A stretch of DNA of 64,000 bases. Origin: Parcubacteria group bacterium GW2011_GWC1_36_108. Lineage in GTDB: Bacteria; Patescibacteriota; Minisyncoccia; Moranbacterales; GWC2-37-73. The translations under genes were made by a program, and so were the position numbers. Under the pieces are notes generated by a model, which ran no database searches, had not been told where the DNA came from, and was given only the letters and a program-made list of their open reading frames with translations. Below are positions 7,421 to 53,915 of the stretch, in pieces. Numbering within the stretch: position 1 is the stretch's first letter; every line of letters starts with the position of its first letter. The DNA lies in the NCBI GenBank assembly GCA_000991245.1, contig LBRD01000006.1:39340-103339 (forward strand). The letters run 5' to 3'.

Positions 7421-9730
7421 TCATTTCGCGATAATCTTACCACCTTGTCCTACTTGGTCCAATTTTACTGAAAGAAGTTTTGAAATTCCATCATCGCCCA
7501 TAGTCACACCATATAGAAGTGAGGCTTGGCGCATAGTTTCGCGATTATGAGTGATAGCAATAAATTGCGTAGTTCCAGAAAGCTCTTGAAGAATCTTGCT
7601 AAAGCGAGCTGAATTTGCTTCATCAAGCGCTGCTTCAACTTCATCAAGAATTGCGAATGGTGGTGGATTATGAGCAATAATTGCAAACAAAAGAGCTAGC
7701 GATGTCAGTGAACGTTCGCCACCTGAAAGCATAGACAAATTAGCAATCTTCTTCCCCGGAGGACACGCGAAAATATCAACACCAACTTCATCCCTTTGAT
7801 CATCTTGATCTTCTTGGTTTTCATTTTCAGCATCTTGTTCAGAAATATTTTCTTCCTCTAAAACTTTCGACTTTCTACTTTTAACTTTCAACTTAATGAG
7901 GTGTGCATTTCCACCACCAAAAATAATACGGAAATATTTAGTAAATTCTTTGTTTATTTGTTCAAAAGCTTCTTCAAATTCAATCTTAATACGCTGATCC
8001 ATTTCTTTAATAATTGCCTCCAGTGAAATAAGCGCGTCTGCCAAATCCTTAAGTTCTTGTGTTAGAAAATCAAAGCGCGCCGTGGTTTCATTGTATTCAT
8101 CAACAATCATCGGATCAATACCACCAATTTGTTCCATTTGCAATTTAAGTTTTGAAATTTCTCGCTCAAGCATTTCCTTGTCGATTACTTCTCCATCAAA
8201 CTTAAGTGCACTAACTTCGCATTTAAGCTCATCCTTAATTTCATTAGTCAAATCTTCCTCTCGCACCTCCACTCGAGCCAATTTAATTTTTGCATCATTA
8301 AACTGATCTTTAAGGACATTCAATTGTTCTTGCTTAACGCGAGATTCACGTTCCAATTGAAAAAATCTTTCACGAAGCTGTCTAACCCTTTGCACTTCTT
8401 GTCCAATTTCTTTTTCAATTTTTTCAAATTGAGCTTTTAATTCAATTTCATTAGCCTTAAAACCTTTCTTTTTTTCTTCAAGCTCTTCAATATTTTTGTT
8501 GATCTCTCCAACTTCTTTTGAATTGTCTTTCTTAATGGAAACTTCTCCTTTGCCAGATTCTTCATACAAATCAAAAAGTTGTTGTTGAATTGCGCGAGCA
8601 GATTCCTTGATGTCCTGCAAATCATCCATATTTTCAGCTTCTTCAACTCGAAGAATCAAACGCTCTTGCGCCATTCTGATGTTAGAAAGTTTTGTCTGAA
8701 CATATTTCAAATCAACCGGAATAATTTCGATAACCTTCTGATTGGCCAATTTTTCTCTTTCCACCACCACGCGCCCTTCTGAAATAATCAGCTCGCGTTC
8801 AACATTATTAAGCTCATGTCTAATTTGTGTTTTTTTTCTATCCAATTCCTGCTCAGCTCCAGAGTCCTGCGCTTTACCAGATTCACGATTAAGCTCGTCA
8901 GTCATTTTATCCACCTCGCGCTGCATATTCATCATCGTTGCGCCAAGAGCTTCTTTTTCGCTTGAAAATTGCTGACGCTGCGTCTGAAATTCATGCCACA
9001 AAAATGAAAACAATTTTGTTTGTTTTTCCTTAAGCTCATCAGCTACCACTCTGCCCTGCTGTGCTTTTTCAGCTTGACGCTTCAACATTCGAAGATGCGG
9101 TTCAATCTCACGAATAAGCCCAGCGGTGCGTTCCATATTCTCTCGCGTTGAATCAAGCTTCTTGAGCGCTCTGTCTTTCTTGATTTGATATTGTTTCACT
9201 CCAGCAGCATCTTCAAGCACACTGCGACGATCAGTCGGCGACGCATTTAAAAGAGCATCGGACATTCCTTGATTAATCACGCAATAGCTTTCCTTGCCAA
9301 CTCCAGCCTTAGCCAATAAGTCGCTAACATCCAGTAATCTTGAACGATTTCCATTAATCAAATATTCTGATTCGCCAGAGCGATACAATTTTCTAGTAAT
9401 AATAACCTCCGTAAACTCCAATGGTATTCTTTTATCTGAATTGTCAAAATGCAGCGACACTTGCGCGCTTGAAAGTCTAGCCTTTGTCCCAGAGCCAGCA
9501 AAAATAATATCCTCAGCTTTTTTCCCGCGCAGTGTTTTCATGGACTGTTCTCCCATCGCCCATTTGATCGCATCAGATGCATTTGATTTTCCAGATCCAT
9601 TGGGTCCAACAATTGCGGTGATTCCCTTGGCATCACTTCCAGCATTAAAATTCCCCGCTGGCAAAAATTCCAGCGTGGTCTTATTAGCAAACGATTTAAA
9701 TCCTAATATTTCAACTTTCTTTAAGTACAT
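7421..9730 (-). CDS. smc: SMC-family chromosome segregation ATPase (short form, 769 aa)
   Basis: N-terminal Walker A GPNGSGKSN, central coiled coil, C-terminal LSGGERSLTSLALLFAI and Walker B FAILDEVEAALD. Confidence 0.85.
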   Translation of the reverse strand: MYLKKVEILGFKSFANKTTLEFLPAGNFNAGSDAKGITAIVGPNGSGKSNASDAIKWAMGEQSMKTLRGKKAEDIIFAGSGTKARLSSAQVSLHFDNSDKRIPLEFTEVIITRKLYRSGESEYLINGNRSRLLDVSDLLAKAGVGKESYCVINQGMSDALLNASPTDRRSVLEDAAGVKQYQIKKDRALKKLDSTRENMERTAGLIREIEPHLRMLKRQAEKAQQGRVVADELKEKQTKLFSFLWHEFQTQRQQFSSEKEALGATMMNMQREVDKMTDELNRESGKAQDSGAEQELDRKKTQIRHELNNVERELIISEGRVVVEREKLANQKVIEIIPVDLKYVQTKLSNIRMAQERLILRVEEAENMDDLQDIKESARAIQQQLFDLYEESGKGEVSIKKDNSKEVGEINKNIEELEEKKKGFKANEIELKAQFEKIEKEIGQEVQRVRQLRERFFQLERESRVKQEQLNVLKDQFNDAKIKLARVEVREEDLTNEIKDELKCEVSALKFDGEVIDKEMLEREISKLKLQMEQIGGIDPMIVDEYNETTARFDFLTQELKDLADALISLEAIIKEMDQRIKIEFEEAFEQINKEFTKYFRIIFGGGNAHLIKLKVKSRKSKVLEEENISEQDAENENQEDQDDQRDEVGVDIFACPPGKKIANLSMLSGGERSLTSLALLFAIIAHNPPPFAILDEVEAALDEANSARFSKILQELSGTTQFIAITHNRETMRQASLLYGVTMGDDGISKLLSVKLDQVGQGGKIIAK

Positions 9731-11256
9731 GGCGCGCAGCGCAAGTTAAAAGTATAAAGTTTTTAAAGTTTATAAAGTAAAATGCAAACAAAATCCATCC
9801 ATGGACTTTATGAACTTTCAACTTTATGAACTTTATAACTTCTTTATTGTACTACACTTTTTTATTTTGGGAAAGAAAACAGCACTATAAAGAAATCTTT
9901 ATAGTGCTGTATTTGGATCGGGAATTATTATGGTTGTTTTTGAGGTTTTGTTGAGTGTTCTAATTCTCAACTATAATAATTCCCAATTGAATTTGGTTCC
10001 CGTGCTGATTGCCTCGTGAATCACGTGACCTGTCAGCACGGGTGCAGATTTTGGGTGTTGCGGAAATTAGATCAGAGTAATCGTCGAATTTTTTGCCTAA
10101 GCAAGTTTGTCCACGTCATATGGGACAATGTTATCGACATTCCTTACCAATTCCCTGGCCAAAATAACTTTACGTCCCTCTCACTGGCTCTTAGACCTAG
10201 AGGATACTCAACGCTATTTAAGTATAACCCCACATCAATACTTGTCAAGCGATTTTATACAAATTAAAAAGGCATGTCTGGATAGATCATGCCTTCGTGC
10301 CTCCGTGGAGGTTATGTGAGTTGAAGCAAATTCAGAAAAATGGTTTCATTTTCTTGCCTCCTTTTTTGAGTTTTGAGATTTTTTGTACCGACCCGAGGGA
10401 ATGTTTTCCCTCGGGCCATATTATACACCAAATTTGAGAAAATTTTGCGGAGGCACGGGGAATTTTTCATCCCCGAGCCTTTCCGCGGTCAGATTTTTGC
10501 GGAGGTCGTGAGCGATTCGCTATCCCGAGCGAGGCAACCAATGTCTTGGTGCCGATGGGTCCATGATCAGCATGACCCGTGGGAGATGCTCCCGACCGTC
10601 CGCGTTTACTACCTGGCAAGTTGATATATATCAGTCATTTGCTGATATATATTTTATGCCAAGCTAGACAAAGCCACTGGTATACATTTCTGCCTCCTTC
10701 CGAGGATATCTTTACGAATCTCCTCGTAAACTCTGGTTGGCCGCGGCTCAGGCGCCGGCGATCAGGGCGGTAATCTTGGCGGCTATGTTTGTTCCAAAGG
10801 TTGCCACGGGCTGTCTTCGTTTCATGTTACACCTCCGATTTTTTGGTCCTCCCTCTACGAGGCGAGGTTGTTAATGCCTTCCTTTTGGGATTTGGAAGGT
10901 ACAAACAGAAAAGTATTTATATTGTCTTTTTCTCTAATGATTTCTTACAAAAATACCTTTCCCGTTTGTGCCTTCCAAAATTTTCTCTTTTCCAAAGAAC
11001 TTTTTAACTTTTTATCGTTAAAGACCAGTATAGCAAATAAAATCGATGTTGTCAAGGGCTTACTATACACAATCCATTTTTTGGCTTAAATAAAGCAAAT
11101 AATAAGAATTTTATAATTTTTAATTTTGTAATTTTATAAATAAATCAAAATTTTTAATGTTTAAAACATTTAAAAATTAAGAAATTATTTAAAAATTAAA
11201 AATTGGAAATTAAAAATTTAAAGTCAATAAGTTACCAAAAAGATAACAATGACTTA

Positions 11257-12267
11257 TTATTTTGATATATATTCCGCCATCTCAACCAATCTATTGGAAT
11301 ATCCCCATTCATTGTCATACCAACCCACGATTTTAACCTGATTTCCCATCGACATTGTTAGTGGCAGATCGACAATTGAAGAATGCGGGTTCATCTTATA
11401 ATCCATAGAAACTAATTCTTTTCTGGTTGCATCAAGAATGTTGAGCATGTTTCCGAGAGCTGCCTTTTCAAAAGCAGCATTAATTTCCTCCACGGTTTTT
11501 GGTTTTTCTACTGTGCAGATAAAATCGACAATCGAAACAACTGGGGTTGGAACGCGAAGCGCTATTCCATCAAGCTTGCCTTTTAAATGTGGAATAACCT
11601 TCCCTACCGTTTTGGCAGCACCTGTGGTGGTTGGGATAATTGAAAGTGCGGCAGCCCGAGCGCGGCGCAGGTCGCGATGTGGCAAATCTAAAAGATTCTG
11701 ATCGTTGGTGTAAGAATGCGTGGTGGTCATGAAACCTTGCTCAACATTGCAAAGATCATCCAATACTTTAATCATTGGAGCTAAACAGTTTGTTGTGCAA
11801 GAACCATTAGAAACAATCGTTTCACCTTTATATTCCTTTTCATTAATTCCTAAAAGAAACACCGGCACATCATCTTTTGGAGGAGCTGACAAAACAACTT
11901 TTTTTGCGCCGGCCTCAATATGCTTTCCAGCGCCTTCTTGATCCAAAAATATTCCAGTGCAATCAAGCACAACATCAACCTCCATTTTTTTCCAAGGCAA
12001 ATTTAATGGATCTTTTTCAGAAAAATATTTGATTGGCTTTCCATCAATAATGAGCTCACTGTTTTCCTTGTCCACATCAACATTGCGCTGCCAAATACCG
12101 TATGATGAATCATATTTAAGAAGATGCGCACTTGTTTCAATATCAGTCAAATCATTAATCGCCACAACCTCCATTCCCTTTTTCTCAAACGCGATTTTTA
12201 ATGATGGTCTTCCTATTCTCCCAAAACCATTAATTGCAACTTTCAACATACAATATTCAACAGTCAA
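11257..12267 (-). CDS. gap: Glyceraldehyde-3-phosphate dehydrogenase
   Basis: INGFGRIGR NAD-binding motif, catalytic SCTTNCLAP. Confidence 0.9.
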   Translation of the reverse strand: MTVEYCMLKVAINGFGRIGRPSLKIAFEKKGMEVVAINDLTDIETSAHLLKYDSSYGIWQRNVDVDKENSELIIDGKPIKYFSEKDPLNLPWKKMEVDVVLDCTGIFLDQEGAGKHIEAGAKKVVLSAPPKDDVPVFLLGINEKEYKGETIVSNGSCTTNCLAPMIKVLDDLCNVEQGFMTTTHSYTNDQNLLDLPHRDLRRARAAALSIIPTTTGAAKTVGKVIPHLKGKLDGIALRVPTPVVSIVDFICTVEKPKTVEEINAAFEKAALGNMLNILDATRKELVSMDYKMNPHSSIVDLPLTMSMGNQVKIVGWYDNEWGYSNRLVEMAEYISK

Positions 12268-53485: not shown

Positions 53486-53915
53486 TTCCCCCTTTTCATT
53501 TGAAAGTGTGCTGCCTAACTATTTGTCATTTTTAATTATAACTGAACATTTATCTCCTGCGATTACTTGTAAATTGTTTACTAAGTTTAAATTTTGAGAG
53601 GGCAAAGATTCTTGTGTTACTATTAAATCATTGCCGTATCTGACAACACAAAAATCAACATCCACATTATTCAAGTTCTCTTTAGCTCGATCTGCCATCG
53701 CAGTATCCCCCTTCTTAGTTGTTAAAAAACAAAAAACCAGCTTTCGCTGGGTGGTTTTTACATAAATTCTGCTAACAATTTTTATGCAATATTACCCAAC
53801 GAAAATTTGCCTCCGACTAGGAGAATGTTCAGGTCCAAGAGGACAATCGCAAATTTTATTGAGAAATTATTCATATACAGTCATTATAGCTGGTTTTTAC
53901 TGATTGTCAATAGCA

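Follow-up and report, generated by a model that had tools for sequence, protein, structure and literature searches.

We analyzed a 64,000-nucleotide (nt) stretch of the genome of Parcubacteria group bacterium GW2011_GWC1_36_108 (contig LBRD01000006.1, positions 39,340 to 103,339), hereinafter called the window, and found that the intergenic region between the GAPDH gene gap and an SMC_N-family gene, here called smc, probably holds a Moranbacteria-specific island of two small genes. The island combines small RNA (sRNA) features with micro-open reading frames (micro-ORFs) and lies immediately upstream of smc, and its first transcription unit, TU1, appears to be built like the dual-function RNAs. 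What can be established from the sequence are the predicted promoters and terminators, conservation far above neutral, covariation, and ORF signals accompanied by substitution patterns.

Two predicted transcription units upstream of smc

The intergenic region is predicted to contain two minus-strand promoter-to-terminator units, TU1 (about 11020 to 10266) and TU2 (about 10214 to 9876), each with its own consensus promoter and intrinsic terminator (Table 1), and both putative genes run in the same direction as their neighbors. Promoters were scored against the σ70 consensus, on the assumption that promoters of Candidate Phyla Radiation (CPR) bacteria follow σ70 rules. P1 and P2, each of which agrees with the consensus at 11 of 12 positions, are two of the four best minus-strand promoter matches in the 64 kb, and a perfect −35 element combined with at least five of the six −10 positions occurs at only four minus-strand sites, P1 included. 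The hairpin ending TU2 is the one in which the original prediction, a reading of the window made from its letters, had seen the terminator of a minus-strand transcript; the terminator with its T-rich tail was borne out, and its place was corrected from 9868-9905 to 9879-9910.

Table 1. Coordinates of the intergenic region and of the features predicted in it (window numbering; RBS, ribosome-binding site)
Feature	Position	Strand	Details
Intergenic region	9731-11256		1,526 bp; between the SMC_N-family gene (7421-9730, −) and the GAPDH gene gap (11257-12249, −)
P1, promoter of TU1	11027-11055	−	TTGACA, 17-nt spacer, TGcTATACT (extended −10); predicted start near 11020
E1	10891-10979	−	AT-rich hairpin of about 90 nt, 32 pairs, one bulged G; about 40 nt downstream of the predicted start
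H2, alternative hairpin	10877-10899	−	CCUUCC 10899-10894 (3′ basal strand of E1) with GGAAGG 10882-10877
sORF1 with RBS	10748-10836	−	GGAGG 10836-10832, 6 nt, ATG 10825 to TGA 10748; 25 codons; MKRRQPVATFGTNIAAKITALIAGA
Mini-ORF with RBS	10664-10697	−	GGAGG 10697-10693, 5 nt, ATG 10687 to TAG 10664; 7 codons; MYTSGFV
E2	10499-10603	−	Closing stem enclosing a UCCC/GGGA stem and two hairpins (GGGUC...GACCC; GGCACCAA...UUGGUUGCC); ends in the first CCUCCGCAAAAA motif
Two-GC-hairpin module	10393-10486	−	GCGGAAAGGCUCGGGGA...UCCCCGUGCCUCCGC (10486-10447) and CCCGAGGGAAAACAUUCCCUCGGG (10416-10393)
Five-codon ORF MKPFF	10332-10349	−	GGAGG 7 nt upstream
T1, intrinsic terminator of TU1	10266-10293	−	GGCAUG...CAUGCC, then UUUUU; −9.6 kcal/mol
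P2, promoter of TU2	10221-10248	−	TTGACA, 16-nt spacer, TATACT; predicted start near 10214
TU2	9876-10214	−	Structured RNA of about 340 nt; conserved 3′ domain 10000-9876
TU2 terminator hairpin	9879-9910	−	14 bp; T-rich tail 9878-9868
smc promoter-like site	9846-9873	−	TTCCCA, 16-nt spacer, TACAAT; marks the end of the island

For comparison, about 20 related loci from roughly 15 species were collected by way of GAPDH, an exact-pattern metagenome scan, and SMC homologs; they are labeled with L-numbers (e.g., L006), and WIN denotes the window sequence. The same promoter-to-terminator units recur in these loci. P1 is kept at the same place in L006, L008, L010, L011, L016, L040 to L042, L045, L049, and L051, and an equivalent of T1 stands just before the second promoter in L006, L008, L016, L038, L041, L045, and L051. 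P2 together with the start of the TU2 transcript is 88% identical to L006, and promoters of the same class, with a 16-nt spacer, precede the equivalent unit in almost all relatives. At the smc promoter, the block TTTCTTTCCCAAAATAAAAAAGTGTAGTACAAT is conserved in L008, L009, L016, L025, L038, and L045. Overall, the space upstream of smc in the relatives measures 466 to 2,714 bp and contains one to three promoter-to-terminator units whose number and order vary: a TU2-type unit can precede TU1, TU1 occurs without TU2 and TU2 without TU1 (L009, L005, and L047 have no TU1), and modules of the island are shuffled between species. The island stays with smc where the gene upstream is rnc (RNase III), an insertion sequence (IS) element, or a large ORF instead of gap.

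This constant position directly upstream of smc could also mean that the region is a long multi-terminator leader in which TU1 and TU2 serve as attenuators and regulated read-through sets smc expression. Attenuator-like features are indeed present, namely, a mini-ORF followed by a hairpin and the E1/H2 alternative pairing described below, and the 5′ untranslated region (UTR) of smc has a conserved hairpin of its own with a U-rich tail. However, each unit carries a consensus promoter, smc has its own conserved promoter block, the units vary in number and order as just described, and no pairing that competes with the terminators was seen. We therefore regard a leader function as quite unlikely and favor two separate small genes.

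The original prediction had started from a 1.5-kb ORF-free space with a GC-richer, hairpin-dense core. The space is in fact the largest of its kind in the window (runner-up, 682 bp); the longest minus-strand ORF within it measures 52 amino acids (aa), and the minus strand carries 61 of the 66 window ORFs of at least 100 aa, smc and gap among them. GC content, calculated over 200 nt at a time, is 43 to 53% across 10300 to 10900, with 47 to 53% in the core, versus 36.4% for the whole window, and drops to 15 to 17% at 11000 to 11300, on the side next to gap. All of the hairpins and words that had been quoted are present, including CCCGAGGGAATGTTTTCCCTCGGG at 10393-10416, a GCGGAGG...CCGC hairpin at 10447-10486, CCCGTGCTGA...TCAGCACGGG at 10000-10043, and the word TTTTGCGGAGG, which occurs twice. 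Folding also surpassed that of shuffled sequences, with z values of −7.1 for minus-strand 10262-11020, −8.9 for the plus strand of the same segment, and −6.0 for 9874-10215, and no shuffle matched the real folding in any of the three.

A single large structured noncoding RNA (ncRNA) over the core, such as a 6S-like or other lineage-specific housekeeping RNA, had been the original proposal, and a GC-rich, very stably folding core in an AT-rich genome, with GC-rich cores in the relatives' intergenic regions as well, would suit it. Nevertheless, an internal terminator and a second promoter split the region into two predicted units, and the core turned out to be a mosaic of modules common to different relatives, not a conserved block, in addition to the relatives that have no TU1. 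Nor did any Rfam family emerge at any threshold in the window or the relatives. At the gathering score, the Rfam scan that had been recommended (Rfam 15) returned nothing, whether in the 64-kb window or in 11 related loci, and at permissive cutoffs (E up to 10 or 5), the intergenic region and two related ones gave only chance matches to microRNA (long-hairpin) models or to small RNAs. The covariance models for 6S, RNase P, and signal recognition particle (SRP) RNA, which take in features such as the 6S central bubble, P4 of RNase P, and SRP domain IV, found nothing at that score in the window or the 11 related loci, and ARAGORN found no tRNA or tmRNA in the window, in agreement with the reported lack of RNase P, tmRNA, and SRP signatures. 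A tmRNA combines a tRNA-like domain with a tag reading frame that has no RBS or ATG of its own; sORF1 possesses both. One large ncRNA is thus very unlikely, and while the 6S-like label has to be given up, the description as an RNA matching no known family still applies to the parts.

The note had named a decayed pseudogene as the alternative to an RNA, and with it a mobile-element remnant has to be considered. The GC content above the genome average speaks for such an origin, as does the tendency of this position to take up insertions in relatives, where it holds an IS element, large ORFs, and phage-like genes. Against it, Pfam gave no match for the 10 longest ORFs of the region, blastn found no similar DNA in phage and plasmid collections, and tblastn with the ORFs that fill this position in L025 and L013 found no trace in the intergenic region of the window. 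Moreover, tblastx similarity to relatives extends over all six frames, which places the similarity at the nucleotide level, and conservation is well above neutral. With neither an RNA family match nor a protein trace, the region matches no known RNA and is not a detectable pseudogene, and we consider a remnant hardly credible.

Conserved RNA structures of TU1 and TU2

E1, near the 5′ end of TU1, is the best-conserved element of the whole intergenic region and sits outside the GC-rich core that was originally flagged. The segment around it, 10860 to 11020, folds at −42 kcal/mol (z = −5.1). A covariance model, R1, recovered one E1 copy per locus in 16 loci of 13 species with scores of 93 to 130 bits, and a scan of the window detected no copy beyond the one in the intergenic region. 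By blastn, the promoter-plus-E1 stretch is 75 to 95% identical in relatives, and the hairpin alignment has a mean column identity of 86%. Measured between the window and its relatives, identity reaches 86 to 100% in E1 and 81 to 85% in the core modules, compared to 39 to 68% at the four-fold degenerate sites of smc, which we took as the neutral baseline. In the E1 alignment, 94.5% of the cells pair, versus about 50% in slid-partner controls; three pairs have changed on both sides and eight further pairs on one side by way of G·U. Because such G·U pairs exist only in the minus-strand RNA, the one-sided changes fit that strand. The candidate structured RNA of the original prediction thereby gains conserved structures that read from the minus strand and covary in relatives. 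A search of viral contigs with an E1 pattern produced only the same chance match to a coding region as in L043.

The 3′ basal strand of E1 has a second potential partner downstream, with which it would form the hairpin H2. H2 can form in 13 of 13 species, is maintained no worse than the base of E1, and shows compensatory changes (CCUUCC/GGAAGG, CCUUUC/GAAAGG, CCUUUCU/AGAGAGG, and GCCUUCCA/UGGAAUGGC). Since the base of E1 and H2 share one strand, the two pairings are mutually exclusive. The arrangement looks like a switch, or like a hairpin that would form after the long E1 duplex is cut.

Farther downstream, E2 is common to the window, L006, L008, and L051. Separate single-sequence folds of the three relatives agree on its architecture, and the minimum-energy fold of WIN keeps the closing stem and both hairpins, with GAGC/GCUC replacing UCCC/GGGA. 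The closing stem varies in a compensatory manner (GGCAGGG/CCCUGCC versus GGCAGAG/CUCUGCC versus GUCG/CGAC), as does the second hairpin. A gapped E2 pattern gave at least 120 matches in viral contigs; the pattern was too permissive, and the matches were taken for chance without inspection and discarded. Over about 100 nt, the two-GC-hairpin module is 81% identical to L016 and 82% identical to L038, while the smc four-fold sites in these comparisons are 42 to 55% identical, and one stem carries an A-U to C-G exchange in L016. Because the reading frame across the GC hairpin is inconsistent in L006, the GC hairpins are best seen as noncoding elements that would act as RNA. Between them lies a second CCUCCGCAAAA motif; these motifs resemble an anti-Shine-Dalgarno (anti-SD) sequence and are conserved. 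In L008 and L051, the whole unit consists of E1, H2, the mini-ORF, E2, and a terminator (about 390 nt), a layout that may be the core of the TU1 family.

TU2 is marked by its 3′ domain, which comprises a long outer stem, an inner hairpin, an A/C-rich internal loop, a single-stranded GAUCCAAAUA tail, and the terminator hairpin. Relatives share this domain despite very different stem sequences. The covariance model R2, built from seven sequences of the domain, gives the window a score of 111 bits and also recovers copies that were not used to train it, including second copies in L041 and L040 and weak matches in L016 and L008. Some of the additional copies lie upstream of TU1, and a second class of the unit is detected weakly. 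Of 19 pairs, 12 have changed on both sides and 88.6% of the cells pair, levels reached by 0 of 500 shuffles, although the alignment was fitted to the R2 model and the pair counts are inflated accordingly. Given their conservation far above neutral and the lack of an Rfam 15 match, E1 with its alternative pairing, E2, and the TU2 3′ domain apparently represent new RNA families.

Two other roles for TU2 were considered and set aside. As an antisense partner of TU1, it gave a duplex energy no better than that of shuffled TU2, an unrestricted duplex search being a poor test. The hairpin at 10000-10043 encloses the palindrome TCACGTGA, the 8-bp core of the parS consensus, beside the smc-like gene; only the core matches. 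The hairpin is absent from L006, the match is probably due to chance, and the idea of a parS site was abandoned as unsupported. The same holds for T-box stem I, a CsrA sponge, tmRNA-like tags, and a likeness of MKRRQP to ribosomal protein L34.

Short reading frames and the proposed mode of action

The core had been described as noncoding. It holds, however, short ORFs with perfect GGAGG-ATG signals, at least two of which evolve in a way that is consistent with translation. In the first 18 intergenic regions, that of the window included, about 30 GGAGG/AGGAG-ATG starts lie on the gene strand and 1 lies on the opposite strand; in 11 further regions, all 18 are on the gene strand. sORF1 has counterparts at the same place in at least 12 relatives (e.g., MKHNHGPPAATTFGANISKITAAAG in L045 and MKRRQPVTPLRVNISHNF... 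in L006; a further homolog reads MKRRQPVTPLRVNISHNFAGNITFSSMPLIGASAGN...), located 50 to 106 nt past E1 in most species. In 13 of 13 species, an ATG follows a perfect GGAGG at the optimal distance of 5 to 7 nt. The insertions and deletions of sORF1 preserve the frame: those between WIN and L006 measure 12, 12, and 3 nt in the protein alignment, and all that was seen to distinguish L040 from L042 across TU1 is an in-frame deletion of 57 nt in L040. In the three closest pairs, differences at codon positions 1, 2, and 3 number 11, 13, and 25, respectively.

The mini-ORF makes a more convincing case than sORF1. Its peptide is retained with few variants, MYTSGFV in the window, MYTSGFI in L008, MHTTGFV in L051, and ...YTCGFI in L014, while the Thr codon changes among ACC, ACG, and ACA and the Gly codon between GGC and GGA. 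Furthermore, its stop codon marks the start of a hairpin in the window and, judged by eye, in L008 as well. The third frame, MKPFF, was not found in relatives and is specific to the window genome; its status as a gene is uncertain.

sORF1 evolves rapidly. L041 and L042 are 74.5% identical at smc four-fold sites and about 98% identical in the 3′ 330 nt of TU1, and their H2-sORF1 segments match in about 42% of the alignment columns, so that sORF1 diverges faster than neutral sites. Divergence so far above that of the flanks, a small ORF in a highly structured mRNA beside a separate small RNA, and a 597-aa ABC transporter about 7 kb away might point to a type I toxin-antitoxin or peptide-natural-product locus, with sORF1 as the toxin or precursor peptide and TU2 as the antitoxin RNA. 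But the peptides are mostly polar and have no membrane-spanning stretch, as a type I toxin would be expected to have; the TU1-TU2 duplex is no better than with shuffled TU2, no modifying enzymes of the kind that accompany ribosomally synthesized and post-translationally modified peptides lie nearby in the window or relatives, and TU1 and TU2 each occur alone. Such a locus is very unlikely.

Several observations count against two small genes of which one encodes peptides. Over all pairs, the codon-position differences in sORF1 are nearly flat (112, 118, and 133), and its stop shifts among species while the nucleotides behind it stay similar; these two facts imply that the peptide may matter little, or that translation alone matters, and the constraint on the sORF1 peptide appears weak at best. 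A profile of the sORF1 peptides searched against 5.8 billion proteins returned only three of the input peptides themselves. At the RNA level, thermodynamic folding is equally good on both strands and so confirms the hairpin density but cannot pick the strand; the promoters and terminators of TU1 and TU2 are consensus matches only; the covariation signal of E1 is modest because the hairpin is nearly invariant (24 to 54 of 500 shuffles reach the observed values); and the E2 comparison comprises four sequences. Nor did a trans target, a partner protein, or a downstream gene under regulation emerge from the analysis.

These points would be accommodated if TU1 and TU2 were purely noncoding sRNAs whose GGAGG and CCUCC words pair internally, or decoy or sponge ribosomes or an RNA-binding protein, any translation being incidental. 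The SD-like and anti-SD-like words do occur in matched numbers and pair locally, e.g., GCGGAAAGG with CCUCCGC and CCUCCACGGAGG, and no protein family was found for any of the peptides. Yet the spacing between GGAGG and ATG in all 13 species and on the gene strand only, the survival of the mini-ORF peptide through synonymous Thr and Gly changes, and sORF1 insertions and deletions that are all multiples of three count against a strictly noncoding role, which we judge rather unlikely.

From the island of two small genes, which remains our preferred reading, we infer transcription, translation, the E1/H2 switch, and every function as follows. A consensus σ70-type promoter would drive TU1 (about 755 nt), and E1 would be the first element of the transcript to fold; its basal CCUUCC would re-pair with GGAAGG as H2. 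Either the two pairings would toggle or a double-strand RNase would cut E1 and H2 would then form at the new 5′ end, and stability or translation downstream would change. Behind this switch would come the fast-evolving 25-aa ORF and then the 7-codon mini-ORF with its conserved peptide, whose stop abuts the hairpin leading into E2, such that its translation would remodel that RNA. The CCUCCGCAAAA motifs and GC hairpins are predicted to pair with the internal GGAGG sites or could pair with the RBSs of other mRNAs. TU2 (about 340 nt) would be a separate structured sRNA whose 3′ domain covaries and whose C/A-rich tail lies exposed ahead of the terminator.

A more far-reaching version would make E1/H2 a new class of RNA switch, in which a ligand- or protein-bound 90-nt sensor hairpin gates a strain-variable micro-peptide that is kept hypervariable, while the RNA flanking it is ultraconserved on the 5′ side and conserved on the 3′ side. 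The locus would then be a peptide-based recognition, signaling, or antagonism system of episymbiotic CPR bacteria, with TU2 as a second new sRNA family. We consider this proposal unlikely.

Relation to known systems and genomic surroundings

Dual-function small RNAs include Staphylococcus aureus RNAIII, which encodes delta-hemolysin, as well as SgrS/SgrT and Bacillus SR1/SR1P. Like the members of this class, TU1 would form a unit of its own, several hundred nucleotides from promoter to terminator and rich in hairpins, with a 25- to 40-codon ORF near the 5′ part that has its own RBS and with C-rich or anti-SD-like motifs that could pair with RBSs. Its predicted autonomy rests on a promoter (11055-11027) and a terminator (10293-10266) that are both kept in relatives, and its claim to an encoded small protein rests on the GGAGG-ATG start conserved in 13 species and the third-position excess in close pairs, set against the nearly flat all-pairs counts. 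TU1 differs from these RNAs in having no sequence or model similarity to them, several micro-ORFs, a near-invariant 5′ hairpin with an alternative pairing, and a very fast-evolving peptide. A review of dual-function small RNAs is available (PMC12310071).

A second comparison is with leader-peptide attenuators and mini-ORFs that arrest the ribosome, for example, the erm and cat leaders and TnaC. They share with TU1 a very short ORF with a conserved peptide, a stop abutting a hairpin, and alternative pairings nearby. In contrast to them, TU1 has no regulated gene within the unit: its mini-ORF, hairpin, and E1/H2 pairing are followed by a terminator that ends the unit and by an independent promoter for the next gene, and neither an anti-terminator pairing nor a recognizable arrest motif in the mini-ORF was found.

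Finally, the intergenic region resembles those from which structured RNAs have been found by the Breaker-lab intergenic region (IGR) approach (PMC6429828, PMC8632094, PMC11109978), being long and GC-rich in an AT-rich genome and carrying conserved, covarying hairpins. It departs from them in that no Rfam 15 family matches and in that it is composite, with two predicted units and micro-ORFs instead of a single motif. The elements belong to known kinds of genes and, as far as the evidence goes, do not form a new kind of system.

CPR bacteria are uncultured and have minimal genomes. To our knowledge, little or nothing has been described of their small RNAs and micro-proteins, and a full-text search of the literature on CPR/Patescibacteria small RNAs and small ORFs returned nothing specific. 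The two candidate micro-peptides were missed by automatic annotation in every assembly examined. If expressed, TU1 and TU2 would be among the most strongly promoted genes of the region, and the locus provides seed alignments for new RNA families as well as targets that metatranscriptomic and metaproteomic searches could address.

The GAPDH and the SMC-family protein of the window were found on dozens of contigs, and the intergenic region occurs with zero differences in four contigs from different samples. Neighbors in the window and relatives are hydrogenase, hypA, gap, smc, DUF5671, HU, and methyltransferase genes. The gene called smc encodes only 769 aa and matches SMC_N and AAA_23, with no hinge family listed; about 120 listed Moranbacteria homologs have about 760 to 813 aa, two shorter entries excepted. 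Canonical SMC proteins have about 1,200 aa; the window protein is instead a short ATPase that resembles them. Downstream of the smc promoter (9873-9846) and ahead of the ATG (9730), the 5′ UTR of smc contains, at minus-strand positions 9779 to 9815, a hairpin, GUCCA...UGGAU, followed by UUUUGUUUGCAUUUU. This element is kept in most relatives (L005, L025, L038, L041, L045, L051, and L055) and has the look of an attenuator of smc or of a site where a protein binds.

The position upstream of smc is a hot spot of insertion and rearrangement in relatives (L052/L053, about 400-1900; L047, 1-3018; L049, 1549-2232; the L025 and L013 intergenic regions; and L045, 745-1146). Its occupants are an ISL3 transposase, a Peptidase_S74 gene with 106-aa and 782-aa ORFs behind it, rnc in place of gap, and ORFs of 379 and 240 aa whose products look secreted. 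L045 has a bAvd/23S_rRNA_IVP gene, an accessory of diversity-generating retroelements, between hypA and gap. Further modules occur in one group of relatives (L010, 7860-8600; L011, 7390-7700; and L041/L042, upstream of P1), of which one is a second TU1-like unit without E1 that has three micro-ORFs, two of them ending in LSALTR, and another is a conserved block, GAAGATACTGTGGCAA...CTAAAATTTTCACTGCG, upstream of P1. L053 (2249-4010) and L054 (800-2868) agree fully in smc DNA (100% over 2,325 nt) and in the 3′ portion of TU1 but diverge in the TU1 promoter, leader, and sORF1, and TU2 is present in L054 only. Either recombination with a breakpoint where sORF1 ends or a chimeric metagenome assembly would account for this difference.

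Two other observations were made in the window. Between the gap stop codon and P1, positions 11100 to 11250 form an extremely AT-rich tract (15 to 17% GC) that contains direct and inverted repeats resembling AAATTAAAAATT. On the minus strand at 53737-53910 lies another candidate small unit, in which a perfect 12-of-12 promoter match (53910-53883) and a terminator (53750-53737) flank a 30-aa hydrophobic ORF (53874-53782), MNNFSIKFAIVLLDLNILLVGGKFSLGNIA.

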